Shown: piece after piece, positions 987 through 46,726 of the stretch | How the letters are laid out: every line of letters starts with the position of its first letter | Position numbering within the stretch: the first letter of the stretch is position 1 | Source: an uncultured bacterium | Lineage (GTDB): Bacteria > Bacteroidota > Bacteroidia > Chitinophagales > Chitinophagaceae | NCBI GenBank assembly: GCA_965363375.1 | Contig: CBDTUH010000001.1 | Span: 1 to 47,781 of the forward strand | DNA length: 47,781 nucleotides | Direction of reading: 5' to 3' | Notes under the pieces: generated by a model | Told to the model about the DNA's origin: nothing | What the model saw: the letters and a program-made list of their open reading frames with translations, nothing else | Database searches by the model: none | Made by a program: the position numbers and the translations under genes

Positions 987-1026
987 AAAAGGAAATTGAG
1001 AGGTTTAAACCTTTTGATTTCCTTTT
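987..1026. repeat. Head-to-head pair of the 21-bp motif forming a 40-bp imperfect palindrome
   Basis: aaaagga-aattg-agaggttta (987-1007) overlaps taaaccttt-tgatt-tcctttt (1006-1026), 6 nt after the stop at 980. Confidence 0.75.
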
Positions 1027-1115
1027 ACTCCAAACGCTCCTGAAAAACTAATTCTTTATCTAAGTTCTGAAAAACCACTTAACCCTATTTTAAATAAAGA
1101 ATTAACCTGCCTCTA

Positions 1116-1898
1116 ATGATCAAAAGAAGCGTTTTTTCCTGCACTTTGGCTACATTCAGCCTGAGCATTCTTATTTTAGTATTATTTAGTTCGTGCGAAT
1201 CTGCTAAGGCAAGAGGTTTTTTTACTGACCTGCCTGACAATGATATTATTCACCTGCCGCCAATGCCATATGAAGATAGGATTATTGAGCCGGGTGATTA
1301 TTTAAGCATTGTATTTACACCCAAAGTAAAAGAAGATGAAGCGGCTGCTTTCTGGGCGCCTCCTCCCTTGGCTACGGGTGCTGCTGCTAATACCGGATAT
1401 CAGGTAGACCCTAACGGCAATGTAGATCTGCCAATGTTAGGAAAGGTAAAAGTTTCCGGCCTTACTGCCGATGCGCTCCGCAACTCGCTTACCCGTAGTG
1501 CCAGTGTTTACCTGAAAGAACCCATGGTAGATGTACGTTTTACTACATTCCGTATTTCGGTAATTGGCGTAGGCGCCGGCATAAAAGAATTGCCGTCACA
1601 AAAGAATACCTTACTTGATGGACTGGCTATGGCCGGAGAAATAGAAAGAATGGGAAATCTGAATGATGTAAGACTTTTCAGAGAATATAAAGGACAACGT
1701 ACCATTTACAAAATAGACCTTCGGAAAAAAGAAGTGCTAAACAATCCAGAATTGTTTCAGCTGCGCCATAATGATGTTATCTATGTAAAAACCAGGCCTA
1801 GCGCCATTTACCGCGAAGATGTAAGATTCTTTACCTCTGTATTTTCTTTTGTGGTGGGCATCATCACATTAGGTTTCACCATTGCTAACAACAACTAA
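1116..1898 (+). CDS. wza: Polysaccharide export lipoprotein (OPX/Wza family)
   Basis: Lipobox-like LFSSC, polysaccharide export motif YQVDPNGNVDLPMLGKVKVSGLT, C-terminal hydrophobic helix. Lies directly upstream of wzc. Confidence 0.85.
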   Translation: MIKRSVFSCTLATFSLSILILVLFSSCESAKARGFFTDLPDNDIIHLPPMPYEDRIIEPGDYLSIVFTPKVKEDEAAAFWAPPPLATGAAANTGYQVDPNGNVDLPMLGKVKVSGLTADALRNSLTRSASVYLKEPMVDVRFTTFRISVIGVGAGIKELPSQKNTLLDGLAMAGEIERMGNLNDVRLFREYKGQRTIYKIDLRKKEVLNNPELFQLRHNDVIYVKTRPSAIYREDVRFFTSVFSFVVGIITLGFTIANNN

Positions 1899-1910
1899 AA
1901 AAATTTCGTT

Positions 1911-4247
1911 ATGGAACAAGTAACTTTTGAGGAAGAGAGCAGTAAAGGTTTTGATATAAAACGTTTCTTTTCGAAACTGGCAAAAAATTGGTATTGGTTT
2001 GTAATTACAATGGGGTTATTTGCTGGAATGGCTTATACTTATTTGCTTTTCACACCTACCACTTACAACGTATCGGCTTATGTACTGATAAAGCATCCGG
2101 CAGAAGCATCTAATATGCTTGGCGGTTCTGCTTTTGGAAGCAGTCAGAAAGAAAGCTGGCTGGATGTTAACAATGAGATTTTTAAATTCCGCTCCGGTTC
2201 CATTGTTCGGAAAGTAGTCGATTCTCTGGATCTTGACGTCCAGGTTAAAACTGATATAAAAGGAAAAAACCAGGTTGTTTCTTTAGACTCTATTCCATTT
2301 CAAATATATATTCAAAGAAAGCAACCTGATATTGCGAGCCCGGAATACAAACTTTCACTGCAGGAGTCTTCTTACACCTTACAATCGGAAAATGAGTCTT
2401 TGACCGGTTCTTACAATCAGCCACTTTTCGTTGGCGGCGACAGTTTGATTATTGCAAAAAAGAACAATGTATCAATTCCTTCCACCAAAGAATTTGATTT
2501 ACAGTTTTTAAGTAAAAGCGCAACGGTTTCAAAGTATATTGGACGCACAGAAATTGTTCCTGTTCCTAAAGCAGGTGAAGGTTTATTGCAAGTAACTGTT
2601 AGAGATGAAGTGCCGTCAAGAGCAAAAAAATTCATCAATGTTTTAGTTACAAATTATGATATTGCGAACCTAGATCATAACAACCAGGCGCTGCGCAAGG
2701 AAATGGACTTCCTGAATGAGCGACTGGCTTCAGTAAGTGAAGAGCTGGACGCACAAGCAAAACTTGTTCGCGATTTCAAAGCGGGTAACCAAGTATTTGA
2801 TGTTGCCTCTTCAGCCAGCCAACTGTTGGGAAGCTTACCTCAAATTGATAACCAGCGTACCAGCAACCTCTTGAGACAAGATTTAGCCAACCTGGTAGAG
2901 TCAAACATAAGAAGCTATAATGGCCGGGAAGAAATTGTACCTAACAGCAACGGACTTAATGATCCTGTTTTGAGCAGCCAGATCGGTAGCTACAATCAGC
3001 TGGTTTTGCAAAAGAGAAGTATTCTTGACAGGGGCACTGCACAAGACCCACGCCTGGACCCAATTAATGGCCAAATGGAAGAACTCAGAACGAATATTCT
3101 AAAAAACATCAGGAATATTAAAAGTGAGATCCGGGCCAACAATAATTCCCTTGCCAGCCAGGAAAGGAAAATAACAGGCCGTTTCTCTACCATGCCGGAA
3201 AAAGAAAAAGAACTGATTGAACTAAACCGTGTGCTGGGTATTAAGCAATCACTTTATACTTTCCTGCTGCAAAAGAAAGAAGATAAAAACCTGGAACTGG
3301 CATCTGCTGAAATTGCAGAATCTAGAATTGTGGATGGGGCAAAAAGTATATCTCAATACCCTGAGCCATCTCTTTTTTACATGATAGCACTCGGTGCCGG
3401 CTTGCTGTTGCCCATCTTAATCATCCTTGTTCGTATTTTAATGAACAATAAAATAGAAACACGACAGGATGTGGAAGCCCTCACAAAGCTGCCCATTGCA
3501 GGTGAAATAGGAGATGCCCGTAAAAAGAATAAAGAACTGGTAGTTACAAGCGACAACAATTCTCCAGAAGCTGAACATTTCAGAACTTTAAGAACCAATA
3601 TTTCTTACTTAACCCGGGGTATAGCTCATAAAACACTTTTGGTAACATCTTCAAAAAGTGAAGAAGGTAAAAGCTTTATCAGCCTGAACCTGGCCAATAG
3701 CATTGCCATTGGTGGTAAAAAAGTGGCCCTGCTGGAATTTGATCTAAGAAATCCAGGGTTGTCTACCAAATTGGAAATGGCCAACACTACAGGCATTGTT
3801 AACTTCTTGATGGAAGAAGCTACTTTGGAAGAAATTGTTCAGCCTACAACGAGTTCTGAAAATCTCTTCTTTGTAAGCTCTGGTTACCCACTGCCATCCA
3901 ATCCGGGTGAGATCATTCTTTCAGACCGGATGGAGCTGTTATTTGAGCACCTGAAAGAAAATTTTGACGTTATCATTATAGACACACCGCCGGTAGGCCC
4001 CGTTTCTGATGCATTGACACTCGGCAGGTTTGCCGATATTTCTTTCTTTGTTGTAAGGCATAAGTATACCTTGCGCACAACATTAAAGTTGATCAATAAA
4101 CTGAGTGAAGATAAAAAGCTGCCGCGCCTGACGCTTATCATTAATGGCATAATAGATAACAAGGAGTTTAATTACGGTAATGACTTTGCTTATGGTTATG
4201 GCTACCAGGCAGATGAAAAGAAAAAGAAAGCCATGATCAGTAATTAA
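1911..4247 (+). CDS. wzc: Polysaccharide co-polymerase / BY-kinase (Wzc/GumC family)
   Basis: Two TM segments around a coiled periplasmic region. Walker A TSSKSEEGKS, A' LLEFDLRNP, B IIIDTPP, and C-terminal Tyr cluster NYGNDFAYGYGY. Confidence 0.92.
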   Translation: MEQVTFEEESSKGFDIKRFFSKLAKNWYWFVITMGLFAGMAYTYLLFTPTTYNVSAYVLIKHPAEASNMLGGSAFGSSQKESWLDVNNEIFKFRSGSIVRKVVDSLDLDVQVKTDIKGKNQVVSLDSIPFQIYIQRKQPDIASPEYKLSLQESSYTLQSENESLTGSYNQPLFVGGDSLIIAKKNNVSIPSTKEFDLQFLSKSATVSKYIGRTEIVPVPKAGEGLLQVTVRDEVPSRAKKFINVLVTNYDIANLDHNNQALRKEMDFLNERLASVSEELDAQAKLVRDFKAGNQVFDVASSASQLLGSLPQIDNQRTSNLLRQDLANLVESNIRSYNGREEIVPNSNGLNDPVLSSQIGSYNQLVLQKRSILDRGTAQDPRLDPINGQMEELRTNILKNIRNIKSEIRANNNSLASQERKITGRFSTMPEKEKELIELNRVLGIKQSLYTFLLQKKEDKNLELASAEIAESRIVDGAKSISQYPEPSLFYMIALGAGLLLPILIILVRILMNNKIETRQDVEALTKLPIAGEIGDARKKNKELVVTSDNNSPEAEHFRTLRTNISYLTRGIAHKTLLVTSSKSEEGKSFISLNLANSIAIGGKKVALLEFDLRNPGLSTKLEMANTTGIVNFLMEEATLEEIVQPTTSSENLFFVSSGYPLPSNPGEIILSDRMELLFEHLKENFDVIIIDTPPVGPVSDALTLGRFADISFFVVRHKYTLRTTLKLINKLSEDKKLPRLTLIINGIIDNKEFNYGNDFAYGYGYQADEKKKKAMISN

Positions 4248-4275
4248 TACATTTTGTACTTCAACTTTTGTAAAC

Positions 4276-4314
4276 AGTGATAATCAGGTTAGCAATAGCT
4301 TGATTATCACTTTT
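4276..4314 (+). terminator. Probable intrinsic terminator after wzc
   Basis: agtgataatcaggtta-GCAA-tagcttgattatcact: 16-bp stem with 2 G-U pairs and a GNRA loop, followed by a T run. Confidence 0.7.
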
Positions 4315-4319
4315 ATCTT

Positions 4320-4340
4320 AAAAGGAAAAAGAGACGTTTT
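4320..4340 (+). repeat. 21-bp motif copy (perfect)
   Basis: aaaagga-aaaag-agacgtttt. Confidence 0.9.
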
Positions 4341-4416
4341 TCACAAGACTGATTGAACATCTTTTGCAGAAAATTTTTTCCATCTTTTTTTAATCCGTAT
4401 TACTTTAATAAAGGCA

Positions 4417-6216
4417 ATGAAGATTTCTTATAAGAATAATTTTTTAGGTTACTTCAAATTCTATTATAGTGTGTTGGGCAATAAAATTATCTACTGCCTG
4501 GCCATGAGTATACTTATAAGCTTTCTGGATGGTATAGGCATTGCCATGTTTATTCCACTTTTAGAAATTGCCAGCAACGCGGAAAGTGGCGTAGCTGATG
4601 AGGGAGCCTCTCTGGGAAAACTGCAATATTTAACTGACTTTATACAGCAGTTAGGAATGGAACTGAATGTTACCAATGTATTGATTATCCTGACCTCGCT
4701 TTTTACTTTAAAAGGTATTTTAAAGTATGTGCAGCTGAATTATTATGCCCGGATCAGGGAGATTTTTATTAAAAAAGTCCGGTACTTTTTAGTTGAAAAC
4801 TTACAAGGTATTTCCTATAGTGCTTTTTTAAAGCTTGATGCCGGTAAAATTCAAAACACACTGACCGGTGAAGTGCAGCGCTTGCTGCAAACTATGACCT
4901 ATTATTTTACGGCTTCACAGGCCATTTCTATGCTTGCAACCTATGTGGTGCTGGCATTACTGGCTAATTACCAATTTGCTTTGCTGGTAGCCGTAGGTTC
5001 TGCACTCTCCAACCTTATTTACAGGAAAATTTATAAATCCACCAAGCAGGCATCTTTTGCGTTGGCCAAGCAAGGCAGCGATTTTAACGGTCATCTTATA
5101 CAGTCCATTAATTATTTTAAATACCTGAAATCAACAAACACATTTGGAGCTTACTCCAACAAGCTCAAAAAAGTGATTAACGAAACTGGTGTGCTGAACT
5201 TGAAGATCGGCAAACTAAATGCTCTGGCCACTTCCATTAAAGAACCGCTTATTATTTGCATTGTCAGCCTGGTGATAGTGCTGCAGCTAAAATGGATGGG
5301 AACCGGTCTGGATGGAATCATACTAAGTCTGCTGCTTTTTTACAGGGCACTTACTTACCTGATTCTGGTACAAAGCTCCTGGCAAAAGTTTATTGAATTC
5401 AGCGGCGGTATGAATTCGGTGGCTGTTATGACGCAGCATATGACGGCTGCCAAAGAAAAGTTTGGTTCGTACCAGGTAGAAGCCATCAATGAGCAGCTTG
5501 AATTTAAAGATGTTACCTTCTACTACGACACAAAAGTTGCACTAAACCATATTAACCTGACCATTCCTGCCCGGCAAACCATTGCACTGATAGGAGAGAG
5601 CGGCTCCGGCAAAACAACCATAGCCAACATGATAGCCGGCTTGTTTTTACCAAAGAGTGGCGACATTTTAATTGACGGCATGCCTTTAAACCAAACCGAC
5701 CTGAACAGCTATAGAAACAAGATCGGATACATCTCTCAGGAGTCGGTTATTTTTAACGACAACATTTATAACAACATTACCTTTTGGGCTGAACCCACAG
5801 CTGAAAATAAAAGACGTTTTGAAGAAGTGATTGAAATGGCGTCTTTGAAAGATTTTATCGAAAGTCAGCCCGAAAAAGAACTGACCAATCTGGGTGACAA
5901 TGGTATATTAATATCAGGTGGCCAAAAGCAACGCATTTCTATTGCCCGTGAGTTGTACAAGAACGCTGAAATATTGATTCTGGACGAAGCCACATCTGCA
6001 CTGGACTCGGAAACAGAAAAGATGATCCAGGAAAATATAGAAAAACTGCACGGAAAATATACCATGGTACTGATTGCGCACCGCTTATCAACCATTAAAG
6101 AGGCGGACATCATTTATCTGCTGGAAGATGGAAAAGTTTCAGCCTCCGGCTCTTTCTACGAAATGATGAACAAATCAACCCGCTTCCAAAAAATGGTTTC
6201 GCTGCAGGCCGTTTAA
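4417..6216 (+). CDS. ABC exporter, fused TMD+NBD (MsbA/PglK-like), probable lipid-linked glycan flippase
   Basis: N-terminal multi-TM domain, Walker A GESGSGKT, signature ISGGQKQR, Walker B ILILDEATSALD, H-loop IAHRLST. Confidence 0.88.
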   Translation: MKISYKNNFLGYFKFYYSVLGNKIIYCLAMSILISFLDGIGIAMFIPLLEIASNAESGVADEGASLGKLQYLTDFIQQLGMELNVTNVLIILTSLFTLKGILKYVQLNYYARIREIFIKKVRYFLVENLQGISYSAFLKLDAGKIQNTLTGEVQRLLQTMTYYFTASQAISMLATYVVLALLANYQFALLVAVGSALSNLIYRKIYKSTKQASFALAKQGSDFNGHLIQSINYFKYLKSTNTFGAYSNKLKKVINETGVLNLKIGKLNALATSIKEPLIICIVSLVIVLQLKWMGTGLDGIILSLLLFYRALTYLILVQSSWQKFIEFSGGMNSVAVMTQHMTAAKEKFGSYQVEAINEQLEFKDVTFYYDTKVALNHINLTIPARQTIALIGESGSGKTTIANMIAGLFLPKSGDILIDGMPLNQTDLNSYRNKIGYISQESVIFNDNIYNNITFWAEPTAENKRRFEEVIEMASLKDFIESQPEKELTNLGDNGILISGGQKQRISIARELYKNAEILILDEATSALDSETEKMIQENIEKLHGKYTMVLIAHRLSTIKEADIIYLLEDGKVSASGSFYEMMNKSTRFQKMVSLQAV

Positions 6217-6227: not shown

Positions 6228-6248
6228 AAAACGTCTGTTTTTCCTTTT
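6228..6248 (-). repeat. 21-bp motif copy (perfect, reverse)
   Basis: aaaacgtct-gtttt-tcctttt, 11 nt after the stop at 6216. Confidence 0.9.
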
Positions 6249-7359: not shown

Positions 7360-8067
7360 ATGACGCTTGCTGTAATGCAGCCTTATTTTTTTCCCTACCT
7401 GGGGTATTTTCAATTGATAAATGCTGCCGACAGGTTCATTCTGGCAGACGAAGTGCAGTACATCAGGCACGGATGGATCAACCGCAACCGGGTTCAAAAT
7501 CAAAACGGAGATTGTACCTATATTATTGCTCCTGTTCAAAAGCATCCGTTAAAAACGACAATCAAAAACATTGCAGTTGTACCCGGTAAAAATTGGAAAA
7601 AAGAGGTCTTAAAAAAGCTGGAAAGCTATAAAAGAAAAGCGCCTTTCTATAAGCAAGTATATTCTTTTATAAATGATTGTTTTGAGTTTGAGGAGAGCAG
7701 CATTACTTTATTGAACCAACACTATTTGCTTAAGGCATGTCGCTATATTGGGATTGAAAAAGATATAAAGCTTCAATCGCAAATGGAACTGGATTATTCA
7801 AATGTCGAGAACAAAACCGACAGGGTATTGCAACTTTGCATTCAATTAGGTGCAGATAGCTATATAAACCTGCCAGGAGGCGCAGCGCTTTACGACAAAA
7901 ACATTTTTTTGAAAAATGGTATCGATCTGAAATTTATAAAACCCAACCTGCAGCCTTACCAGCAGCTGTCCGCTACTTTTGAACCTGCACTTTCAATTAT
8001 TGACGTGATGATGTTTAATGAGCCGGAAAAAATTAAGGAGATGGTTAAAGATTTTCAGCTCCAATGA
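7360..8067 (+). CDS. WbqC family protein (putative aminoacyl/glycine transferase)
   Basis: MQPYFFPYLGYFQLI, WINRNR, YINLPGG and LSIIDVMM are typical WbqC motifs. Confidence 0.85.
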   Translation: MTLAVMQPYFFPYLGYFQLINAADRFILADEVQYIRHGWINRNRVQNQNGDCTYIIAPVQKHPLKTTIKNIAVVPGKNWKKEVLKKLESYKRKAPFYKQVYSFINDCFEFEESSITLLNQHYLLKACRYIGIEKDIKLQSQMELDYSNVENKTDRVLQLCIQLGADSYINLPGGAALYDKNIFLKNGIDLKFIKPNLQPYQQLSATFEPALSIIDVMMFNEPEKIKEMVKDFQLQ

Positions 8068-9017
8068 AAGCAATCGGCGGTTATTTTGAACTGGAACTTC
8101 AAAAGGGAAAAGAGACGTTTCACACGGTTCCTGCATTGAAAAGCGGCAGGGCCGCACTACATGCCATTCTGAAAAAGTTGCGCCCGCAAAACGTCTATAT
8201 TCCCTTTTATACCTGCGATGGTTTGCTGGAATCTTTTGCTGCAGCAGCAGTACCTTACCAATTTTACGCCATAAATCATCAACTGGAACCGCAAGAATTG
8301 CCGGAGCTTAAGTCTGGTGAATATTTTTTGTACATCAATTATTTCGGCCTGAAAAACAAAATTGTTGAACGGCTGATAGAAAAATATGGCGACAAACTGA
8401 TTATCGATTGCTCGCAGGCTTTTTTTTACAAAGGTGATGGACAGGCCTGGAGTTTCAACTCATGCAGAAAGTTTTTTGGTGTTCCAGATGGTGGTTATAT
8501 ATATTATCCAAATGGTGTAGAAATAGAGGTTCCGAAGGAAAAAAACGAAGCCTATACCATCCAGCATTTGCTGCACCGGTTCAATGGAAATGTGAAAAAT
8601 GGCTATCCGTTTTTTGCCGAAAATGAAATACTGTGTAATGCAGACCTGAAAAGCATGAGTAGTCTAAGCGAATGTTTGCTTTCCCATATAAACTATGATG
8701 AATGCATGCTAAGGCGCAAAGAAAATTTCAGGTTTTTGCATCAAGAATTTAAAGACCGAAACCTGTTGAAATGGGAAGAAACCGAAAATGGAGTGCCAAT
8801 GGTGTATCCGCTTTTAACAGAAGAAAAAGTAAGACATGAAAAACTTTGGTCAAAAAACCTGTTTGTACCTATTTTCTGGCAAGATGTGATCAAAAGGAAA
8901 ATAAGAGGTTTTGCAACTGAAGAACATCTAACTAACCATTTACTGCCGCTGCCTGTTGACCACAGGTATACAGAAGAAGACATGCAGGAAATTGTTAGCC
9001 TCGTAAATAGCTTATGA
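8064..9017 (+). CDS. Divergent PLP-dependent DegT-like protein
   Basis: IGGYFELE, SGRAAL, YIPFYTC, IIDCSQAFF, SCRKFFGVPDGG, LPLPVDHRY. Confidence 0.7.
   Translation: MKAIGGYFELELQKGKETFHTVPALKSGRAALHAILKKLRPQNVYIPFYTCDGLLESFAAAAVPYQFYAINHQLEPQELPELKSGEYFLYINYFGLKNKIVERLIEKYGDKLIIDCSQAFFYKGDGQAWSFNSCRKFFGVPDGGYIYYPNGVEIEVPKEKNEAYTIQHLLHRFNGNVKNGYPFFAENEILCNADLKSMSSLSECLLSHINYDECMLRRKENFRFLHQEFKDRNLLKWEETENGVPMVYPLLTEEKVRHEKLWSKNLFVPIFWQDVIKRKIRGFATEEHLTNHLLPLPVDHRYTEEDMQEIVSLVNSL
8101..8208. repeat. Two intragenic 21-bp motif copies in opposite orientation
   Basis: aaaaggg-aaaag-agacgtttc (8101-8121, encodes QKGKETF) and aaaacgtct-atatt-ccctttt (8188-8208, encodes QNVYIPF). Confidence 0.8.
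8892..8912 (+). repeat. Intragenic 21-bp motif copy (AGAGG variant)
   Basis: aaaagga-aaata-agaggtttt, encodes KRKIRGF. Confidence 0.7.
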
Positions 9018-9560: not shown

Positions 9561-9581
9561 GAAAGGGAAAACAGACGTTTT
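9561..9581 (+). repeat. 21-bp motif copy (1 mismatch)
   Basis: gaaaggg-aaaac-agacgtttt, 4 nt after the stop at 9556. Confidence 0.85.
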
Positions 9582-12496: not shown

Positions 12497-12517
12497 AAAA
12501 CGTCTCATTTTCTTTTT
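12497..12517 (-). repeat. 21-bp motif copy (reverse, 1 mismatch)
   Basis: aaaacgtct-cattt-tcttttt, 10 nt after the stop at 12486. Confidence 0.8.
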
Positions 12518-13501: not shown

Positions 13502-14644
13502 TTGAAAATTTTACACCTGATACAAAAAAGGCAGTTGCGCGGCGCAGAGGTTTTTACTTCGCAGCTTTCTAACCAATTGAATAGCCTGGGACATGAGGCC
13601 ATTATTGTCCCTCTTTTTAATGGTAATGCTGCTTTACCTTTTGAAGGAAAGATTATTGAATTAAAAGCATCGGCAAGCAAAAAATATTGGGATGTGGAGG
13701 CCTGGAAAAGATTGGCCCGCATTATTGATGAAGAAAAACCCGATATCATACAGGCAAATGCCGGAGATACGCTTAAGTATGCCCAGTTCTCAAAAATATT
13801 TTTTGGATGGAAACAACCCATTGTATTTCGCAATGCCAGTACGATTAGTTTATACATAAAAGGCACATTCGTTAAAAGTCTGTATCGCTATTTATTTAAC
13901 CGTACCCATAAAATAATTTCGGTTAGCTACAATTCGGCTAATGATTTTGAAACACTATTTCCAGCCTGTAAAAATAAAATTACGGTCATTCCAATTGGCA
14001 TTGAAATGGATAAAGCCATTGAGCAAAAAACGTCTCCAAATCCTTTTAAAAATATAACTGGTAATGGACCTGTATTGATTCATGTTGGCGGTTTTTCTTT
14101 TGAAAAGAACCACAAAGGTCTGGTAGCCATCTTTAAAAGGATTTTAAGACGTTTTCCTAAAGCTACCTTACACCTGGTAGGAGAAGGACCGTTAAGAAAA
14201 GAAACAGAAGCATTAATTGCAGGGGAAAATTTATCTGGGCAGGTTTTTTTTCACGGTTATCAAAAAGAGCCGCTGCAATGGATACAGTATGCCGATGCCC
14301 TATTATTGCCAAGTATCATTGAAGGTTTGCCTGGTGTAATCCTGGAAGCTTTTTACTGCCGCACTCCCGTAGTGGCTTTCAATACGGGTGGTATAAAAGA
14401 AATTGTCATTTCAAACGAAACCGGATACCTGGTTCCGCTCAACGACAATGAAGCTTTTGCAGAAGCGGTGGAAAACCTTCTTTCAGACAGTCAAAAAACA
14501 AATCAACTGGTTGAAAATGCTTATGAAATGGTAATGAGCCAATACACCAATACTCAGGTTGCAAAAAGGTTTGTTGACATTTATAAAAAGCTTACAACAA
14601 CAACAGAAAACAAGAAAATCAAAGTACCTGTAACACAGTTATAA
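13502..14644 (+). CDS. Glycosyltransferase family 4 (GT-B)
   Basis: TTG start, RGAEVF, VGEGPL, PSIIEGLPGVILEA. Confidence 0.88.
   Translation: MKILHLIQKRQLRGAEVFTSQLSNQLNSLGHEAIIVPLFNGNAALPFEGKIIELKASASKKYWDVEAWKRLARIIDEEKPDIIQANAGDTLKYAQFSKIFFGWKQPIVFRNASTISLYIKGTFVKSLYRYLFNRTHKIISVSYNSANDFETLFPACKNKITVIPIGIEMDKAIEQKTSPNPFKNITGNGPVLIHVGGFSFEKNHKGLVAIFKRILRRFPKATLHLVGEGPLRKETEALIAGENLSGQVFFHGYQKEPLQWIQYADALLLPSIIEGLPGVILEAFYCRTPVVAFNTGGIKEIVISNETGYLVPLNDNEAFAEAVENLLSDSQKTNQLVENAYEMVMSQYTNTQVAKRFVDIYKKLTTTTENKKIKVPVTQL
14027..14155. repeat. Two perfect intragenic 21-bp motif copies in opposite orientation
   Basis: aaaacgtct-ccaaa-tcctttt (14027-14047, KTSPNPF) and aaaagga-tttta-agacgtttt (14135-14155, KRILRRF). 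Confidence 0.8.
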
Positions 14645-18010: not shown

Positions 18011-18031
18011 AAAAGGGAAAAGAGACGTTTT
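18011..18031 (+). repeat. 21-bp motif copy (perfect) between convergent genes
   Basis: aaaaggg-aaaag-agacgtttt. Overlaps the stop codon of the minus-strand GNAT gene. Confidence 0.9.
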
Positions 18032-19072: not shown

Positions 19073-19177
19073 AAAAGGGAAAACAGACGTTTTGCAAATT
19101 GCTTGCCATAACAAGAATAATAAAAAAAGGTGAGAACCAACAAACCTTTCTTTTTAATAACGTCTCAAAAACCTTTT
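19073..19177. repeat. Inward-facing pair of 21-bp motif copies in a divergent intergenic region
   Basis: aaaaggg-aaaac-agacgtttt (19073-19093, perfect) and ataacgtct-caaaa-acctttt (19157-19177, 2 mismatches). Confidence 0.75.
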
Positions 19178-22129: not shown

Positions 22130-22744
22130 ATGAAAAGAATGTACCTGTACGGGGCCAGCGGACATGCTAAAGTGATTATTGAAATTCTTGAAAAGGGAGG
22201 AAAAGAGGTTTTCGGTGTTTTTGATGACGATGAAAGCATCAAATCTCTATTTCATTATTCGGTAAATCCATATCCCGGAACGTTTGACCCGATAAAAGAT
22301 CAAATGATCATTTCAATCGGCAATAACAGCATTCGTAAAAAAATTAGCCTGGACCTTGAAATCAATTATGGTATTGCCATACATCCGTTCAGCAGTTTAT
22401 CGGAAAGGTGCACATTGGGTGCAGGCTCAGTAGTAATGGCCGGTGCGGTTGTTAATTCAGATGCTTTCATCGGTAAACATTGCATCATTAACACAAATGC
22501 CTCAGTTGACCATGACTGTAAATTGGCGGATTACGTTCACGTTTCACCAAATGTTGCCTTATGCGGCAATGTAGAAGTGGGTGAAGGTACTCATGTTGGT
22601 GCCGGCACCGTAGTAATACCTGGTGTAAAGATTGGTAAATGGTGTAATATTGGCGCGGGGTCTGTAATTATCAAAAATGTTCCCGATAATTCAACTGTAG
22701 TAGGAAATCCCGGTAGAATAATAAAAACAAATTTATTTATATGA
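22130..22744 (+). CDS. PglD/NeuD family hexapeptide-repeat acetyltransferase
   Basis: YGASGHAKV, VDHDC, left-handed beta-helix repeats, VVGNPGR. Confidence 0.9.
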   Translation: MKRMYLYGASGHAKVIIEILEKGGKEVFGVFDDDESIKSLFHYSVNPYPGTFDPIKDQMIISIGNNSIRKKISLDLEINYGIAIHPFSSLSERCTLGAGSVVMAGAVVNSDAFIGKHCIINTNASVDHDCKLADYVHVSPNVALCGNVEVGEGTHVGAGTVVIPGVKIGKWCNIGAGSVIIKNVPDNSTVVGNPGRIIKTNLFI

Positions 22745-23898
22745 GTTCTAAAATATGGCTCTCTTCCCCTCATATGAGCGGTTCCGAGTTAAAATACATC
22801 CACGAAGCTTTTGATAGCAACTGGATCGCTCCTTTAGGTCCTAATGTGGATGGCTTTGAAAAGGATTTACAGACGTTTTTAGGTGGTGATGTTCACGTTG
22901 CAGCACTAAGTTCGGGAACGGCAGCCATACACCTGGCCCTGGCTATATTAGGAGTAAAAGCTGGCGATGAAGTAATTTGCCAGTCCATGACCTTTTCTGC
23001 ATCTGCCAACCCTATTGCATACCAGGGTGCTACGCCGGTATTTGTTGATAGTGAGGCCGACACCTGGAACCTATCGCCTGAATACCTGGAAATGGCTATA
23101 GAAGACAGACTCAAAAATGGTAAAAAGCCAAAAGCCATAATAGTAGTTCATTTATATGGCATGCCCGCAAAAATGGATGAAATAACTGCAATCGCTAAAA
23201 AGTATGAAATCCCTGTTGTAGAAGATGCAGCAGAAGCACTAGGTTCTACCTACAAGGGTAAGGCTTTAGGTACGTTTGGTGATATCGGTATTTTGTCATT
23301 TAATGGCAATAAAATTATAACAACATCGGGTGGCGGAGCCTTGGTTTCAGCTAACGAAGACTATGTAAAAAAAGCACGCTTTCTTTCTACTCAGGCTTTA
23401 GACCCGGCACCACATTACCAGCATTCACACATTGGGTATAATTACCGCATGAGTAATATTTCTGCAGGCATCGGACGGGGTCAGATGGAAGTGATTAACG
23501 AACGGGTAGCGCAGCGAAGAAAGAATTTTGAATTTTATAAAAATGCTTTTTCATCTATTCATGAAATACAACTGGGAGAAGAACCGGGCACAAACTATTT
23601 TTCAAATCATTGGCTGACGGCAGCACTTATCAACGGGTCAGCCGTAACAAGAGAAGATATACGTTTGGCACTGGTGGAAGCAAATATTGATTGCCGTCCC
23701 CTCTGGAAGCCAATGCATTTGCAACCTATTTTTGAAAAGGCACCTTACTATGGAAATGGAACCAGTGACAGCCTATTTGAAAAAGGATTGTGTTTGCCAT
23801 CCGGCTCTAATTTAACAGAAACAGAATTGAATAAAGTAGTTTCTATCATTAATCGGGTTTTTGAACATACAAAAGCAGAAGTAGCAGCAAACCACTAA
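22741..23898 (+). CDS. DegT-family aminotransferase (PglE/EpsN-like)
   Basis: WLSSPHM, NWIAPLGP, EDAAEALG, SFNGNKIITTSGGG, RPLWKPMH. Confidence 0.92.
   Translation: MSSKIWLSSPHMSGSELKYIHEAFDSNWIAPLGPNVDGFEKDLQTFLGGDVHVAALSSGTAAIHLALAILGVKAGDEVICQSMTFSASANPIAYQGATPVFVDSEADTWNLSPEYLEMAIEDRLKNGKKPKAIIVVHLYGMPAKMDEITAIAKKYEIPVVEDAAEALGSTYKGKALGTFGDIGILSFNGNKIITTSGGGALVSANEDYVKKARFLSTQALDPAPHYQHSHIGYNYRMSNISAGIGRGQMEVINERVAQRRKNFEFYKNAFSSIHEIQLGEEPGTNYFSNHWLTAALINGSAVTREDIRLALVEANIDCRPLWKPMHLQPIFEKAPYYGNGTSDSLFEKGLCLPSGSNLTETELNKVVSIINRVFEHTKAEVAANH
22859..22879 (+). repeat. Perfect intragenic 21-bp motif copy
   Basis: aaaagga-tttac-agacgtttt, encodes EKDLQTF. Confidence 0.8.
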
Positions 23899-26097: not shown

Positions 26098-26118
26098 AAA
26101 AGGGAAAAGAGACGTTTT
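26098..26118 (+). repeat. 21-bp motif copy (perfect)
   Basis: aaaaggg-aaaag-agacgtttt, 10 nt after the rfbF stop. Confidence 0.9.
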
Positions 26119-26145: not shown

Positions 26146-26718
26146 ATGACATTCACAGAAACAAAAATAAAAGGCGCTTATATTATAGATATAAAGCAGA
26201 TAGGTGACGAGAGAGGTTTTTTTGGAAGATCGTATTGCAAAAGGGAATTTGAACGTTTGGGCCTCAATACAAATGTTGTACAGGCCAACATCAGTTCCAA
26301 CAAAAAAAAGGGGACACTACGCGGGTTGCATATGCAAATAGCGCCAGCCGAAGAAACAAAGATGGTAAGATGTACCCGCGGTGCCATTTTTGATGTGTTG
26401 GTAGACCTTCGTCAGCAATCCGAAACCTTTATGCAATGGCTGGGCGTTGAACTGAAAGCAACTGATTATAGGATGTTTTACATCCCCGAAGGATGCGCAC
26501 ATGGCTACCTAACGCTGGAAGATGATACGGATGTAATGTACCAAGTCACTGAATTTTACACCCCGGAAGCAGAACGAGGCTTTAAATGGAATGATCCGAC
26601 TTTTAACATCCAATGGCCAAAAGAGCCGGTAATTATTTCTGAAAAAGATAAGGCACAACCAATATTTCATCCGGATTTATTAATGCCGAATTTTAGTGAA
26701 AAAACAGAAACGTTATAA
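26146..26718 (+). CDS. NDP-4-keto-sugar 3,5-epimerase (RmlC/RfbC cupin family)
   Basis: DERGFF, GTLRGLH, VDLR, PEGCAHGY, WNDP. Confidence 0.9.
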   Translation: MTFTETKIKGAYIIDIKQIGDERGFFGRSYCKREFERLGLNTNVVQANISSNKKKGTLRGLHMQIAPAEETKMVRCTRGAIFDVLVDLRQQSETFMQWLGVELKATDYRMFYIPEGCAHGYLTLEDDTDVMYQVTEFYTPEAERGFKWNDPTFNIQWPKEPVIISEKDKAQPIFHPDLLMPNFSEKTETL

Positions 26719-26736
26719 ACGTCTTTATTTCCTTTT
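26716..26736 (-). repeat. 21-bp motif copy (reverse) beginning on the TAA stop codon
   Basis: TAAacgtct-ttatt-tcctttt. Confidence 0.85.
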
Positions 26737-26773: not shown

Positions 26774-27748
26774 ATGAAATCTCCAAAAGTATCTGTACTC
26801 ATACCTACCTATAATTATGCGCATATACTTGATGTTACCATTCAAAGTGTGTTGGCGCAAACTTATACCGACTTTGAGTTGATCATCGTAGATAACTGCT
26901 CTGCCGACAATACGGTTGAAGTAGTTGAAAAATACCTTTCTGATGCCCGTGTTTCTTTTTACAGAAACGAAAAAAATCTGGGGCTTACCGGCAACTGGAA
27001 CCGTTGCCTAGAACTAGCAAAAGGTGAGTACATCAAATACCTATGTGCTGATGATAAATTTCATCCACAGATACTTGAAAAATATGTTCCTATAATGGAC
27101 AGCCATCCTCAGGTTTCGCTTATATCCTGTCATAAGCAGGAATTTGATGAGAATGGACTAAAGAAAAAAGTGGTTTACCCACCTTTTAAGGGTGTGGAAA
27201 ATGGCCGCAAAGTGATATACGATATGATCCGGCACGATCAGAACTACTTAGGCGATCCTACAAGACCAATGATAAGAAAGTCCAATTTAAATGTGGGCCC
27301 CTTTAAAACACTGGAATTTATTACCGACTGGGAAATGTGGGTACGGCACTTATTAGTGGGCGAATGCTATGTAATACCCGAGGTGCTGGCATATGGCCGC
27401 AAGCATGAAGGTCAGCAGCAGGTGAGGTGTAAAAAGAAATCGATCAACCACCTGGAAATGTATACGCTTTACAATGCAATTCAAAAAGGTGATTATGTCA
27501 TTACCTTTCCCGAACATAAAAGGGAATTAAGAGGTTTTGTAAAACAAAAAGCTGCAAATTGTGCATTTGCCATGTACAAGCTATTACCAAAATTGCATAT
27601 CAAGGAAAATCGCGAGTTGTTCCTAAAGTTCTTCCATATTGCCCGCAAGGAAAAAATGATAGTTGATCCTTCGGTTCTTGGAGTATTCCGTCAAAAGTTG
27701 AAAGACAGGAAAGCAGCGAAAGAAATGGCACGCAGTATGGTCTTTTAA
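26774..27748 (+). CDS. Glycosyltransferase family 2
   Basis: VSVLIPTYN, VDNCSAD, NWNRC, LCADD, DWEMW. Confidence 0.88.
   Translation: MKSPKVSVLIPTYNYAHILDVTIQSVLAQTYTDFELIIVDNCSADNTVEVVEKYLSDARVSFYRNEKNLGLTGNWNRCLELAKGEYIKYLCADDKFHPQILEKYVPIMDSHPQVSLISCHKQEFDENGLKKKVVYPPFKGVENGRKVIYDMIRHDQNYLGDPTRPMIRKSNLNVGPFKTLEFITDWEMWVRHLLVGECYVIPEVLAYGRKHEGQQQVRCKKKSINHLEMYTLYNAIQKGDYVITFPEHKRELRGFVKQKAANCAFAMYKLLPKLHIKENRELFLKFFHIARKEKMIVDPSVLGVFRQKLKDRKAAKEMARSMVF
27518..27538 (+). repeat. Intragenic 21-bp motif copy (AGAGG variant)
   Basis: aaaaggg-aatta-agaggtttt, encodes KRELRGF. Confidence 0.7.
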
Positions 27749-27759: not shown

Positions 27760-27780
27760 AAAACGTTTATTTTTCCTTTT
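27760..27780 (-). repeat. 21-bp motif copy (reverse, 1 mismatch) abutting the next ATG
   Basis: aaaacgttt-atttt-tcctttt followed directly by ATG at 27781. Confidence 0.8.
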
Positions 27781-29139: not shown

Positions 29140-30254
29140 TTTCAACAACCAGCAAACCAGTAGCTAATTCCATATTGAAACAGGATATGGAAGCTATTTT
29201 CGATGCCTTATCGGTTCAGGAAAAAGAAAGGCTTAAAAATTCGACACTGCTTCTTACAGGATGCGGTGGATTTTTAGGATATTATTTCATGCACTTTTTC
29301 GCTCATTATGCAGAGGAATTGCAATTAAAGAAAATAATAGCTTTAGAGAATTTTTTAACAGGCACCAAAGACTGGTTGGCAAACCTGGTGGAAAGCGACC
29401 CCGAACTGATTAAACTTCATGAGTTTAATGTAATTACAGATTCAATTGAAGATGTTCCTGGAGCTGCCGATGCTGATATGATCATTCATATGGCGTCCAT
29501 AGCATCACCTACCTTTTATAGAATTTATCCTATAGAAACGGTTGATGCCAATATTACCGGTTTGCGCAGGCTGCTCGACTTTTATGCACAAAAGGCAATA
29601 AAGGGGTTTTTATTTTTCAGCAGCAGCGAGATCTATGGCGATCCATTTCCTGAATTTATTCCTACAAAAGAAGATTACAGAGGCAACGTAGCGACTATAG
29701 GTCCGCGTGCTTGCTACGATGAGGCAAAGCGATTTGGAGAAACCTTATGTTACCTGTTCTCTCAAAAATATAAAATGCCTATTGGCATAGCAAGGCCCTT
29801 CAACAATTATGGCCCCGGTATGAATATTAATGACAAACGATTGCCAGCAGATTTTGCTAAAGCGGTAATTGAAGGTCGCGACCTGGAAATACTTTCGGAT
29901 GGTACACCCACACGCACATTTTGCTATATTTCTGATGCCATAACAGGATATTTGAAGGTAATGTTGCATGGAGAATTTGATGTATTCAACATTGGTATGG
30001 ACAAGCCCGAACTATCTGTAAAAGAGTTTGCCAATATATTTAATAAAGAAGGTAAAGAAATATTTAATTACGGAGGTAAAATATCTTTTTCACAATCTGC
30101 CGACAAAGAATACCTGACCGATAATCCCAACCGCCGCTGCCCGGATATCACTAAAGCCAGGACTGTGCTAAATTATAATCCGCAGGTAATGGTAGAAGAT
30201 GGGATTAAGCGATATTTACAATTTTTAAAAATCAATAACGGTCAATTAGTATGA
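29136..30254 (+). CDS. NDP-glucuronate decarboxylase (UXS/ArnA-like SDR)
   Basis: TGCGGFLG, MASIASP, SSSEIYGDP, GPRACYDEAKR, RPFNNYGP, TRTFCY, PNRRCPDI. Confidence 0.82.
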   Translation: MISTTSKPVANSILKQDMEAIFDALSVQEKERLKNSTLLLTGCGGFLGYYFMHFFAHYAEELQLKKIIALENFLTGTKDWLANLVESDPELIKLHEFNVITDSIEDVPGAADADMIIHMASIASPTFYRIYPIETVDANITGLRRLLDFYAQKAIKGFLFFSSSEIYGDPFPEFIPTKEDYRGNVATIGPRACYDEAKRFGETLCYLFSQKYKMPIGIARPFNNYGPGMNINDKRLPADFAKAVIEGRDLEILSDGTPTRTFCYISDAITGYLKVMLHGEFDVFNIGMDKPELSVKEFANIFNKEGKEIFNYGGKISFSQSADKEYLTDNPNRRCPDITKARTVLNYNPQVMVEDGIKRYLQFLKINNGQLV

Positions 30255-31540
30255 TAACAGTATTGGGTTTAGGTTTTGTGGGCCTTACAACCGCATTAGG
30301 ATTCAGCAAAAAAGGATTTAAAGTATATGGTATAGATGTAGCCGCCGAAAGAGTAGCAAGAATAAAAAAAGGAGAAGTACCTTTTTACGAACCGCATCTT
30401 GATGAAGTATTGCAGCAGGAACTGGGTTCTAATTTTATTATAGATGCTTCTTTGCAAGAAGCTGTAACTAATAGCAAACTTATTTTTATTTGTGTGGGTA
30501 CGCCTGGTAATGCAGATGGAAGTGCAAATCTTACCTACTTATTACAGGCCGTAAAAGATGTTTTTGAAAGTAGCGATGGAAGCTTTAAGGTAATTGTTAC
30601 CAAATCAACGGTGCCGCCGTCAACTGTTTCAAAAAAAGTAAAACCTTTTGTTGATGAATTAAATTCATCTTATAATAAGCCCGTCGGTCTTGCATCTAAT
30701 CCTGAATTTTTAAGAGAAGGATATGCGTGGGACGATTTTATGAACCCTGACCGGATTGTTATAGGTGTAGAAGATGAAGCATCAAAAGAAATATTAAATG
30801 AAATTTATCAGCCTTTTAATGCGCCCATTCATTATGTAAGTTATAATTCGGCTGAGTATATAAAATATCTATCCAACACCTTACTGTCAACGCTCATCAG
30901 CTTTAGCAATGAAATGGCCATGATAGGTGAAAGCATTGGAGATATAGATGTGCCGGCAGCATTCAAAATATTACACCAGGATAAACGTTGGTTTGGTGAG
31001 CCGGCATCAATGTCAAGCTATGTTTTCCCGGGTTGTGGTTATGGAGGCTACTGCTTACCAAAAGACACGGCAGCGCTTAGCAGCATTGCAAAAGAAAATG
31101 GTTTTGAAGCAAAAATGCTGAACAGCAATTTGCAGATAAATGAGGAGATTAAAGAGCATGCTGCCAATAAAATTACATCCAGCGTTTCAAAAGAGAAAAC
31201 TATTGGCATTCTGGGATTGGCTTTTAAGAGCGGTTCGGATGATGTAAGGCTTAGCCCTAGTAAATTTATTATAGAAAAATTATTGGCAAAAGGATTTTCA
31301 GACGTTTTAGCTTACGACCCCATGGCCAATGAAGTTTTCAACAAAGAGTTTGGACTTCCGATTACATATATCAATTCTTTAGAGGAAATTGTAGAAAAAG
31401 CGGATGTATTGGTGTTGTTAACCAGCTGGCCAGAGTTCAAGCAAAACAAGTCTTTGATTCATACAAAGCAGCTTTTTGATTTTCGCTATGCTTTTGCTGA
31501 ATTAAAAAAGAGCGAACCTGCTATTGTTGAAAATATATAA
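30251..31540 (+). CDS. UDP-glucose/GDP-mannose dehydrogenase family protein
   Basis: GLGFVG, CVGTP, KSTVPP, NPEFLREG, GYGGYCLPKD, GLAFK. Confidence 0.9.
   Translation: MITVLGLGFVGLTTALGFSKKGFKVYGIDVAAERVARIKKGEVPFYEPHLDEVLQQELGSNFIIDASLQEAVTNSKLIFICVGTPGNADGSANLTYLLQAVKDVFESSDGSFKVIVTKSTVPPSTVSKKVKPFVDELNSSYNKPVGLASNPEFLREGYAWDDFMNPDRIVIGVEDEASKEILNEIYQPFNAPIHYVSYNSAEYIKYLSNTLLSTLISFSNEMAMIGESIGDIDVPAAFKILHQDKRWFGEPASMSSYVFPGCGYGGYCLPKDTAALSSIAKENGFEAKMLNSNLQINEEIKEHAANKITSSVSKEKTIGILGLAFKSGSDDVRLSPSKFIIEKLLAKGFSDVLAYDPMANEVFNKEFGLPITYINSLEEIVEKADVLVLLTSWPEFKQNKSLIHTKQLFDFRYAFAELKKSEPAIVENI
31288..31308 (+). repeat. Perfect intragenic 21-bp motif copy
   Basis: aaaagga-ttttc-agacgtttt, encodes AKGFSDVL. 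Confidence 0.8.
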
Positions 31541-31558
31541 ACGTCTTGATTTCCTTTT
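31538..31558 (-). repeat. 21-bp motif copy (reverse) beginning on the TAA stop codon
   Basis: TAAacgtct-tgatt-tcctttt, directly followed by a terminator. Confidence 0.85.
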
Positions 31559-34212: not shown

Positions 34213-34213
34213 A

Positions 34214-38862: not shown

Positions 38863-38870
38863 TAATTTCA

Positions 38871-42390: not shown

Positions 42391-42419
42391 TAGACATTTG
42401 TTAGAATAAATAATACTGG

Positions 42420-42449: not shown

Positions 42450-42471
42450 GTTGCAAGCCACTTATAACTAT

Positions 42472-42495
42472 AAAAAAAGCCCCCTTGCGGAGGCT
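42472..42495 (-). terminator. Minus-strand intrinsic terminator with no annotated upstream gene
   Basis: Minus strand reads agcctcc-gcaa-gggggct-tttttt. Confidence 0.65.
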
Positions 42496-42577
42496 AGCAG
42501 TCAATTCATGTAAGCGTTACAAATATCAATAAAAAAATGAGACACTCCTTATCTTTTTAAAAAATTTCCTTTGCGCT

Positions 42578-42800
42578 AAAACGTCTCTTTTCCCTTTTGA
42601 TACATATTGAATTTTACTGCATCATTTAAATAGCTGAAACAAAATACAAAAGGAAAAACGGACGTTTTATAACTATCAATGTAAAGAAAGAGACGTTGCA
42701 AATTATACAAAATTTAAAACGTCTCTTTTTCCTTTTAAATTTCTACCGGTTGATTCTCTGTTTATTTTAAAATTGGTAAAAAACGTCTTATTTTCTTTTT
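42578..42800. repeat. Intergenic array of 21-bp motif copies in mixed orientation
   Basis: Reverse 42578-42598, forward 42648-42668, partial forward near 42691 (agacgtt), reverse 42716-42736, reverse 42780-42800. Confidence 0.88.
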
Positions 42801-46100: not shown

Positions 46101-46576
46101 ATAACAAGGTGAAATTGTACGGTGACGTCATGTTCATACCCACACCTAATTTTTTTTACGGCCTGAAAGACGATGAAGAAATTTTAATTGAGATTGATAA
46201 GGGTAAAAGCATTTTGGCACGTTTGCTCACCTTTACCGAACCCGATGATAAAGGCCGCAGAAAAGTATTCATGCGCCTGAATGGTCAGACCAGGATCATT
46301 GAAATTCAGGATCAGTCAGTAAAAATTTCCAGCCGCGAAAATGTAAAAGCAGACAAAACCAACAGTGCGCACGTGGCCGCACCATTGCAAGGTAAGCTAT
46401 CGCAGCTGCTGGTAAAGGAAGGAGATACAGTGAAGCACAACCAACCACTTTTTGTAATTGAGGCTATGAAAATGGAAACGACGATTACAGCTAATAAAAG
46501 CGGTGCTATTGAAAAGCTGATGCTGACAAGCGGTACCATGGTAAAGGCCGACGACCTGGTGCTGATACTAAATTAG
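43127..46576 (+). CDS. pyc: Pyruvate carboxylase
   Basis: Biotin carboxylase (ANRGEIA, HPGYGFLSE, GGGGRGMR), carboxyltransferase (DTTFRDAHQSL, WGGATFD, HLHTHD), biotinyl EAMKM. Start is TTG 43118 or ATG 43127. Confidence 0.97.
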   Translation: MTSKKITKLLVANRGEIAIRILRACSELEIKTVAIFTYEDRYSLHRYKADEAYQIGAEDDPLKPYLDAEAIIQVAKRCGAEAIHPGYGFLSENFEFARLCRQHGIIFVGPDPEVMQQLGDKVLAKQIAKQCQVPLIESSQQPLNSFEVALEEARRIGLPVMLKAAAGGGGRGMRVIRSEEELEKNFNEARREAKNAFGDDTVFFEKFIDQPKHIEVQIVADRHGNVMHLFERDCSLQRRFQKIVEVAPAFSLHQTVKDQVYEYATAICRAVNYNNVGTVEFLVDKDNKVYFIEVNPRIQVEHTVTEMITGIDLVKTQIHIAEGFELYSKEIGLPQQADIKMNGYAIQCRITTENPEADFMPDYGTVLAYRSAEGFGIRLDEGSVYNGVKISPFFDSLLVKVTAHSSTVIDAVRKLKRALMEFRIRGVETNIRFLLNIIRHPEFIAGNATVNFLQQHPEIITYNTAQDRGTKILTYLAEISINGHPDVKVKDGTKVFEKPLIPPYHPNKPIPAGTKQLLDEKGPEAVCQWLKNEKSIHYTDTTFRDAHQSLLATRMRTVDMLKVASAFAQSFPQTFSMEVWGGATFDVCMRFLYEDPWKRLQLIRKAVPNILLQMLLRGANAVGYKAYPDNLVESFIEKSWEAGVDIFRIFDSLNWMPNMEKSIQAVRQKTGGIAEVAICYTGDIQNPKRTKYNLQYYKQFAKDIENSGAHMLAIKDMSGLLKPWAAYELVSELKATVNIPIHLHTHDTSSLQSAMYLKAIEAGVDAIDCCMGAVSGLTSQPSFNAIAEMMQFHERELPYDLNLLHQHATYWEAVREYYYPFESGLKASSAEVYRHEIPGGQYSNLKPQAASLGLGNKMEDIKKAYADVNELFGDIVKVTPSSKVVGDMALFMVTNNLTKDDVLQKGENLSFPESVVSFFKGDIGQPVGGFDPKLQKIILKDIQPFTDRPNVHLKPIDFEKELETFQQKFDKDLTFNDLLSYLLYPKVFEEYYNKVKLYGDVMFIPTPNFFYGLKDDEEILIEIDKGKSILARLLTFTEPDDKGRRKVFMRLNGQTRIIEIQDQSVKISSRENVKADKTNSAHVAAPLQGKLSQLLVKEGDTVKHNQPLFVIEAMKMETTITANKSGAIEKLMLTSGTMVKADDLVLILN

Positions 46577-46577
46577 C

Positions 46578-46726
46578 AAAACGTCTCTTTTCTCTTTTGG
46601 TTTAGTGGTATTGGATGTAATTGATGAATGGCAAAACGTCTGTTTTTCCTTTTTCATTCAGCAGTCAGTTTTTTGCAATTTGAATTTTAAATTTTTACAT
46701 TTCTAAAAACGTCTGATTTTCCTTTT
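46578..46726 (-). repeat. Three direct copies of the 21-bp motif after pyc
   Basis: aaaacgtct-ctttt-ctctttt (46578), aaaacgtct-gtttt-tcctttt (46633), aaaacgtct-gattt-tcctttt (46706). Unique spacers of 34 and 52 nt. Confidence 0.9.

Follow-up and report, generated by a model that had tools for sequence, protein, structure and literature searches.

The 47,781-bp stretch of DNA analyzed here (the window) is contig C1 of an assembly, GCA_965363375.1, from an uncultured member of the Chitinophagaceae. This source genome, which we call G000 and whose genus we infer to be Flavisolibacter, comprises 3.44 Mb in 445 contigs and is 77% complete. The window is dotted with copies of a bipartite motif that is a real and large feature of the genome, one of an apparently undescribed family of species-specific tags of 21 to 22 bp within a single Bacteroidota genus. 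The explanation that we place first, at a probability of roughly 40%, is that the motif may be a tag resembling an uptake sequence, one that a bias in DNA exchange has spread. An earlier note, made from the letters of the window, had drawn attention to the motif; our analysis goes beyond it in finding that the motif does not extend beyond a small lineage, that different versions occur in relatives, and that copies bound shuffled intergenic modules.

A motif found once per kilobase

Our results reveal that the motif is pervasive and precisely built. In G000, 1,785 copies with a five-base spacer are perfect, compared with 23 and 10 in which perfect arms are separated by four or six bases, and 0 to 4 for any other length. 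Simulated genomes yielded none (order-3 Markov) or two (order-6). When sites were scored with a 33-bit profile at a threshold of at least 16 bits, there were 3,527 in G000 and 5 in the reversed genome. This amounts to about one site per kilobase, with sites taking up 2.2% of the bases in the genome and 11.7% of those that are non-coding, so that the motif is genome-wide rather than locus-specific, as had been suspected. Its consensus is YAAAAGG-R(A/T)4S-AGACGTTTT, with a profile consensus of TYAAAAGGAAAAAGAGACGTTTT. The length first proposed, 21 bp, is one base short, since the preceding base is a pyrimidine in 96% of sites and makes the motif 22 bp. The arms do form the imperfect inverted repeat that was described (self-similarity of 0.45 inverted versus 0.25 to 0.32 direct). 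The spacer is fixed in length, as claimed, but is not free in sequence: its consensus is AAAAG and it obeys an A-then-T rule. The right arm may resemble a BsmBI site, an invertible-promoter repeat of Bacteroides, or half of a homing-endonuclease site, a likeness on which none of our conclusions depends.

The same holds at the scale of the window, where 27 matches with at most one mismatch were found and 0.00 were expected from 100 shuffles, in line with the very low chance estimated by hand in the earlier note. Every one of the sixteen copies that it listed as perfect was recovered in place. Ten of its twelve near-perfect copies are one-mismatch matches, and the copy at 1006 has two mismatches (16.3 bits), but at a threshold of 14 bits the scan did not return the one at 19157. 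A further one-mismatch match at 22192, absent from that list, scores below 14 bits. Three outcomes had been named in advance as grounds for abandoning the motif, namely counts at the level of a null, four- or six-base spacers as frequent as five-base ones, and a match to a known IS end, REP, or transcription-factor site; none of those that we looked for was obtained, an Rfam comparison giving zero matches in 88 kb of sequence. Likewise, the literature on Bacteroidetes, Chitinophagaceae, and Flavisolibacter contained no relevant report of such a motif, in a search that took in few subscription journals and no supplements.

Placement in the genome and the origin of copies in genes

About 90% of sites lie between genes and 344 of the 3,527 (10%) lie within them, a 45-fold higher density in intergenic DNA (3,346 genes were predicted with a purpose-made hexamer caller, so that boundaries are approximate). 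Within genes, copies are found where proteins tolerate change. Specifically, 292 of 1,955 genes with at least 200 residues had an orthologue-like match in sampled relatives, and these contained 57 sites. None of the 57 faced a gap of six or more residues. Small gaps accompanied 11 of them (19%) versus 6% of control windows, and protein identity was 0.40 at sites versus 0.61 in control windows. In-gene density was 22 to 29 sites per 100 kb at 45 to 65% identity to relatives and 0 above 85%, and it dropped from 31 to 1.5 with rising codon adaptation. Because large gaps are missing, identity is lowered, and density falls with both conservation and codon adaptation, the motif has replaced codons at tolerant positions and has not been inserted. 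Furthermore, two integrase-bearing islands, contig C27 (17.7 kb) and positions 10.1 to 37.8 kb of C2 (31 to 36% GC), together span 45 kb with 0 sites where about 46 would be expected. With GC skew as a proxy, strand bias was not clear (418 versus 373 sites on 63 short contigs, p = 0.12; rank correlation of 0.13 over 203 contigs, p = 0.06), and a strong replichore skew of the kind seen for FtsK-orienting polar sequences (KOPS) or Chi is unlikely.

Copies also crowd the 3' ends of genes. Stop codons are overlapped at offsets -1 and 0 by 151 sense and 124 antisense copies, and 80 to 90% of convergent gaps of 80 to 600 bp contain a copy. Placement of this type, along with the common spacers found in 69 to 72% of the closest inverted pairs, is what might be expected if the motif were a terminator or a regulatory site, or if mutation or repair had produced it with no dedicated reader, for instance through a methylase bias of the sort considered for the HIP1 repeat. 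Yet there are only about 100 close inverted pairs among the 3,527 sites, and orientation to genes in tandem gaps is nearly even (715 sense, 588 antisense). On general reasoning, moreover, 33 bits is far beyond the need of a methylase, or of a regulator that has 3,500 sites, and the lack of Rfam matches points the same way. We therefore consider this explanation highly improbable, even if some close inverted pairs may double as terminators.

Signs of a double-stranded-DNA-binding protein

Two patterns suggest that the motif is read as duplex DNA. First, at spacer positions 8 to 11 of 2,265 arm-defined sites, TTTT (58 versus 0.3 expected) and ATTT (65 versus 5.6) are favored, while ATAA (7 versus 99) and TAAA (8 versus 46) are avoided; that is, the A/T spacer shuns TpA steps, in which T comes before A. 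Such a preference for A followed by T would be expected of a protein that recognizes a narrow minor groove by its shape. Second, inverted neighbors are helically phased. Spacing of back-to-back pairs peaks at 27 to 28, 36 to 38, and 45 to 48 bp (R = 0.63 at 10.5 bp, n = 69, p about 1e-12), and that of head-to-head pairs at 22 to 25, 31 to 36, and 42 to 46 bp (R = 0.37, n = 68). The intervening DNA is not palindromic, which together with the phasing means that a hairpin would not explain the spacing. Judged from these patterns of sequence, the motif is very probably a duplex site bound by a protein, and the proposal in the earlier note of a cis element for a trans-acting factor gains support accordingly from the side of the DNA.

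One candidate reader is an abundant cytoplasmic protein that would coat or organize the chromosome, or mark self against a defense nuclease; ordinary selection would then gain sites, and cooperative binding would set both the phasing and the polarity of arrays. The phasing of inverted pairs favors such a role, as does the spacing of direct neighbors, which are scarce under 40 bp and peak at 61 to 68 bp. HIP1 is argued to serve nucleoid structure (PMC5861425). On the other hand, sites alter amino acids, and no unrecognized abundant basic protein was apparent when the highly codon-adapted genes of G000 were read by eye. Two other searches for the trans factor returned no candidate: clustering of paralogues in G000, and a comparison for proteins common to G000 and the motif-bearing genome G496 (see below) yet missing from a 2.7-Mb motif-free sample, for which the filter was too leaky. 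We regard a chromosome protein as possible but somewhat doubtful.

Other versions of the motif in related genomes

The motif is restricted to a small lineage. In the other 71 of 72 genomes of the genus, there were 0 to 10 matches at one mismatch, the level of their controls, and a scan of 400 genomes of the family turned up two with one exact match each. The 72 include the unpublished genome G070, on which alone none of our conclusions depends. A GTDB-wide pattern scan that covered 14 of 64 parts gave an estimate of about 560 stretches, close to the number of contigs in G000 itself, and showed no locus. Two metagenome contigs are dense in the motif, with 18 sites in 11.1 kb (proteins 78 to 95% identical to those of G000) and 5 in 3.7 kb (56 to 68%), and 13 loci on viral contigs have one copy apiece. 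The motif can fingerprint DNA of the lineage, and it revealed a foreign 6-kb stretch in the genome G004. There, at the start of contig C8 (L001, 1-6900), 10 copies lie within 5 kb, together with an additional purH and comEC whose codon use, as GC content at third positions (GC3), is G000-like. This second pair adjoins G004's own mreBCD, and the native pair is on C30; the stretch may be a transfer or an assembly chimera.

The sister genome of G000, G067 (guaB 90%, support 99/98), lacks the G000 motif and has its own instead, RTATGGGKTTTTRAARRAGTT. A 15-base pattern of it has 655 exact matches versus 2, which among the 72 genomes is found in G067 alone, and its profile gives 145 matches in 215 kb versus 5, in the same kind of array positions as in G000. 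No viral locus carried this version. In 66 orthologue pairs, 5 in-gene sites of G000 and 19 of G067 were all ungapped, and 0 of the 24 coincided. Such a wholesale exchange for a different sequence at different positions would be odd for a motif with a structural role on the chromosome. A side observation concerns L170 (G067 C336), where four G000-type sites (15 to 25 bits) occur in 16 kb, far over background, perhaps as the result of a transfer out of the lineage of G000.

A third version, ACCCTTTTTNAAAGGTTTT, has 465 exact matches versus 0 in G496, which is probably the same genome as the genus member G015, and no more than 4 in each of 250 genomes of the family. It forms 229 sites in 415 kb versus 4, is about 7 times denser outside open reading frames (ORFs; a count that includes shifted duplicates), and is accompanied in its genome by few repeat modules, mostly unlinked to it. 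In a purH tree, G015/G496 falls apart from the group of G000-type genes and G067, with weak support. In all three versions an A/T tract precedes A-R-A-S-G-T-T-T-like bases, and it is the left arm that sets them apart, a pattern suggesting that one protein family may read them. No comparable dyad was seen in 14 other genus genomes, from each of which 40 to 86 kb was sampled, and in which weaker versions could escape.

Three GC-rich members (G061, G064, and G035; L288-L305) have tandem units of 9 to 10 bp, GGTTTT plus purines, right after stop codons, in regions that were chosen around matches and whose density is thus not representative. One run is a single mismatch from the G000 motif. We rejected these genomes as carriers, as their right-arm enrichment comes from tandem runs and not from dispersed 21-mers, although the unit is a possible ancestor of the 21-mers. 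Tandem units at gene ends are also what a polymerizing protein on the chromosome would need. Genes adjoining the runs were ordinary, without a candidate for the reader. A bolder scenario, which we regard as possible but somewhat doubtful, is that a Flavisolibacter family of DNA-binding proteins with swappable left-arm specificity would repeatedly take over genomes, starting from the tandem 9- to 10-bp intergenic unit and rewriting thousands of sites, including coding letters, within sister-species divergence. If true, the scenario would amount to a drive system by which genomes tag themselves, without relation to DNA uptake sequences, HIP1, or known recombinases, and one that could isolate species genetically and delete the cell's own uptake channel as a side effect.

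A separate repeat occurs in G096 (L063, L129-L143), in which the palindrome ATTAAT is strongly over-represented: TATTAATA occurs 542 times versus 110 expected in 322 kb, and TTTATTAATG 949 times genome-wide versus 72 in the reversed control. This palindrome is HIP1-like or methylase-linked and unrelated to the G000 motif.

Arrays and intergenic repeat modules

Sites in G000 fall into 1,884 clusters, of which 1,023 are single copies and most of the remainder direct arrays of 2 to 7 copies set 45 to 75 bp apart. Between copies lie recurrent short-repeat modules, which motif-free relatives also have at lower density. In G000, nearly all modules are found no more than 90 bp from a copy and in a fixed orientation to it (25 of 25, 60 of 62, 38 of 39, and 30 of 32 in four families), and arrays have an ordered layout. 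Where sites have a common downstream (571) or upstream (437) module, the likeness runs to the edge of the motif, and the variable bases of the motif follow neither flank (excess of at most 0.12 versus 0.3 to 0.6 just outside). Adjacent direct copies have the same spacer in 9 to 14% of cases versus 11% at random, and arrays at the same loci differ between G000 and a sister population. Because likeness ends at the motif edge and direct neighbors are no more alike than random copies, the data suggest that copies have been points of repeated crossing-over that shuffled modules, rather than products of duplication.

Several processes that build arrays were tried and rejected. Tandem or target duplication was set aside because of spacer sharing at the random level, and an insertion sequence (IS) end or its target duplication because of that same figure and the lack of insertion-type gaps (0 of 57 and 0 of 24). 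CRISPR-like capture was dismissed because 550 of 1,249 spacers match other intergenic modules in the genome and their length is not fixed.

The ordered, oriented layout and the sharp module edges could also be the work of an enzyme, in which case the motif would be the target of a mobile element's site-specific recombinase or transposase, as proposed for the Neisseria dRS3 repeat, and arrays would be mini-cassettes built and shuffled by it. A patchy spread, with G015/G496 outside the main group in the weakly supported purH tree, would suit a mobile element. Against this stand the substitutions within genes, the lack of target duplication, and the G015/G496 version that is dense with few linked modules. 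In addition, searches of the 77%-complete G000 assembly for an IS110-type (PF02371) or Y1 (PF01797) transposase, a reverse transcriptase, or Rep_3 came back empty (Rep_3 occurs in G063 alone among the 72 genus genomes), and two of the three tyrosine recombinases of G000 sit on site-free islands. We judge a recombinase target improbable. The earlier note had listed an uptake sequence, a nucleoid-protein site, and a recombinase or transposase target; an insertion-type origin of the last kind is weakened, since in-gene copies are substitutions, direct neighbors are no more alike than random, and no IS110 or Y1 transposase or reverse transcriptase was found in the incomplete assembly, while the other two candidates are still viable.

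Some other repeats and joins were recorded along the way. Two genes recognized by a peptide pattern as encoding four-helix bundles (G000 C14 8187-8588 and C204 near 6159) are flanked by short-period repeat arms like those between copies, without the motif. From about 5370, G000 contig C165 is GC-rich and site-free, joined just past thyA, with a G000-type folA on C274; the join is probably chimeric. In another Chitinophagaceae genome (L077 15377-15900), an intergenic repeat of 89 to 97 bp in tandem contains GATTTTGA runs.

Competence genes and a proposed bias in exchange

We propose that a species-specific double-stranded-DNA-binding protein would read the motif and favor tagged DNA in gene exchange, most likely during DNA uptake. 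This bias would ratchet the tag into every tolerant place, and crossing-over at the abundant 21-bp copies might then shuffle intergenic repeat modules and cause deletions of DNA. Biased exchange is put first because substitution at coding-tolerant positions, absence from islands, and species-specific versions match traits reported for the DNA uptake sequences (DUS) of Neisseriaceae and the uptake signal sequences (USS) of Pasteurellaceae, and because a structural role accounts less well than drive for the wholesale replacement of one version by another at new positions. On the same side are ComEC matches in 67 of 72 genus genomes, a dprA that is whole in G067 and split over two contig ends in G000, and an intact comEC with the G000 motif in G004 C8.

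Nevertheless, a number of observations weigh against this proposal, some of them concerning competence genes, for which the picture is mixed. Most members of the genus have ComEC but lack such a motif. From the G000 assembly comEC is absent, as are its neighbors purH and mreBCD, and the comM of G000 (C287 2194-3105) covers positions 3 to 279 of 499 and ends mid-contig, running into a convergent gene, on a contig without any site. No ComEA-type helix-hairpin-helix protein was found in our searches. In G067, comEC (C256; L212 3122-3990) is a pseudogene with an early stop, a frameshift near the end, and the loss of core residues 232 to 621, and the motif persists regardless. Placement of sites is a further difficulty. 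Polar arrays of 3 to 7 copies within a few hundred bases exceed what uptake should reward, and in-gene sites are spaced from other sites only slightly more than expected (p = 0.03 with codon adaptation matched, and p = 0.12 for the comparison within genes). Of 20 listed genes for DNA repair, recombination, or replication, picked by pattern with one doubtful pattern pair, 17 have no internal site and one has two. Finally, DUS and USS fall within ORFs in 34.5 to 65% of cases (PMC2817400), and the 10% of the G000 motif is well short of the third or more expected for that class.

The state of comEC in G067 bears on more than one explanation. Persistence of the motif in a genome with a dead comEC favors a chromosome protein, which explains this persistence, the phasing, and the arrays better than biased exchange does. 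However, the few lesions in the remnant allow, as a rough estimate, that the loss was recent, in which case the motif would remain largely intact. The deletion was joined at a copy of G067's own motif, as a recombinase target would predict, but only one such event is known here, and a collapse in the assembly could have produced it. A search of G000 for internal gene deletions gave one, with no motif at the joint. At L019 comEC is whole, as it is in the motif-bearing stretch of G004 C8, where it has three strong internal copies.

Copies within the window

The window illustrates most of these placements. An inverted pair (987..1026; 987 on the plus strand, 1006 on the minus strand) begins 6 bp past the stop of the ORF at 111..980, and a consensus copy (4320..4340, plus) lies in the gap 4247-4417. 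Copies follow stop codons at a distance of 11 bp (6228..6248, minus; stop at 6216), 4 bp (9561..9581, plus; stop at 9556), and 10 bp (26098..26118, plus; stop at 26087). Others are in the gap 12486-12557 (12497..12517, minus), between divergent genes (19073..19093, plus), and in two gaps that they occupy, one between convergent genes (18011..18031, plus; gap 18004 / 18030) and one of 32 bp (27760..27780, minus). Copies on the minus strand run across stop codons at 26718 (26716..26736) and 31540 (31538..31558).

In-gene copies include three (8101..8912; 8101 plus, 8188 minus, 8892 plus) in the ORF at 8064..9017 and two with T-tract spacers (14027..14155; 14027 minus, 14135 plus) in the ORF at 13502..14644. 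Single plus-strand copies lie in the ORFs at 22741..23898 (22859..22879), 26774..27748 (27518..27538), and 30251..31540 (31288..31308, translated as KGFSDVL). The gene pyc has copies on both sides: a four-copy intergenic cluster 5' of it, with spacing of 62 to 70 bp (42578..42800; 42578 minus, 42648 plus, 42716 minus, 42780 minus), and, from 1 bp past its stop (46576), a direct array of three minus-strand copies with short repeat modules in between (46578..46726). The polysaccharide locus of the window carries sites, which qualifies the pattern of absence from acquired DNA. Inside this otherwise tagged locus, 11 kb (31560-42570, with ORFs of 1,294 and 673 residues) is site-free and may be a more recent acquisition.

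Comparison with known systems

With thousands of copies, the G000 motif is over-represented to the degree of hundreds to thousands that marks DUS and USS, and, judged by conservation, codon adaptation, and two islands, it occupies permissive positions and is absent from recent acquisitions. Its codon-tolerant placement, absence from islands, and lack of a clear strand bias match traits reported for DUS and USS (PMC2817400, PMC2397512). It differs in being 22 bp with two specified arms, in its polar arrays and helical phasing, and in having no sequence likeness to the USS cores given in PMC3630211. Furthermore, its host belongs to the Bacteroidota, versions in sister species diverge at about half of positions, and one carrier has a dead comEC.

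The dRS3 repeats of the neisserial intergenic mosaic elements (NIME) offer a different likeness. These bipartite repeats of 20 to 22 bp lie in dynamic intergenic arrays, where they separate short modules of many families, and are proposed recombination points (PMC1797815). The G000 motif similarly bounds many families of 20- to 200-bp modules in arrays that differ between relatives. However, dRS3 is a perfect 6-bp inverted repeat around 8 free bases, whereas the G000 motif is polar, its spacer is constrained, and it occurs in genes too and mostly as single copies; a phage recombinase of the IS110 type was not found in the 77%-complete G000 assembly. The motif thus accumulates like an uptake sequence and bounds mosaics like dRS3, and on the tests for membership it belongs to neither class. 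Repetitive extragenic palindromes (REP) and their bacterial interspersed mosaic elements (BIME), which go with a REP-associated tyrosine transposase (RAYT), likewise form intergenic mosaics downstream of genes. The G000 motif differs from them in that a single copy has no GC-rich hairpin, no Y1 transposase was found in the incomplete assembly, Rfam gave no match, and copies within genes arise by substitution. HIP1 is hyper-abundant at more than one copy per gene, lies in and between genes, and has an unsettled function (PMC5861425). It is an 8-bp palindrome common across a phylum, whereas the 22-bp asymmetric consensus of the G000 motif is not a short palindrome with a methylase site, is limited to few species, and has a 45-fold intergenic bias.

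If the reader were a chromosome protein, it would represent a new type, one whose high-information sites number in the thousands. More generally, long uptake sequences are an established feature of two proteobacterial families, which are called unique in this (PMC3630211). Our findings highlight a longer and independently built family of motifs in the Bacteroidota, with three mutually exclusive versions in one genus, for which dozens of relatives without the motif serve as controls. Versions so close together make it testable how such motifs start, how fast proteomes are rewritten, and whether species split as a result.

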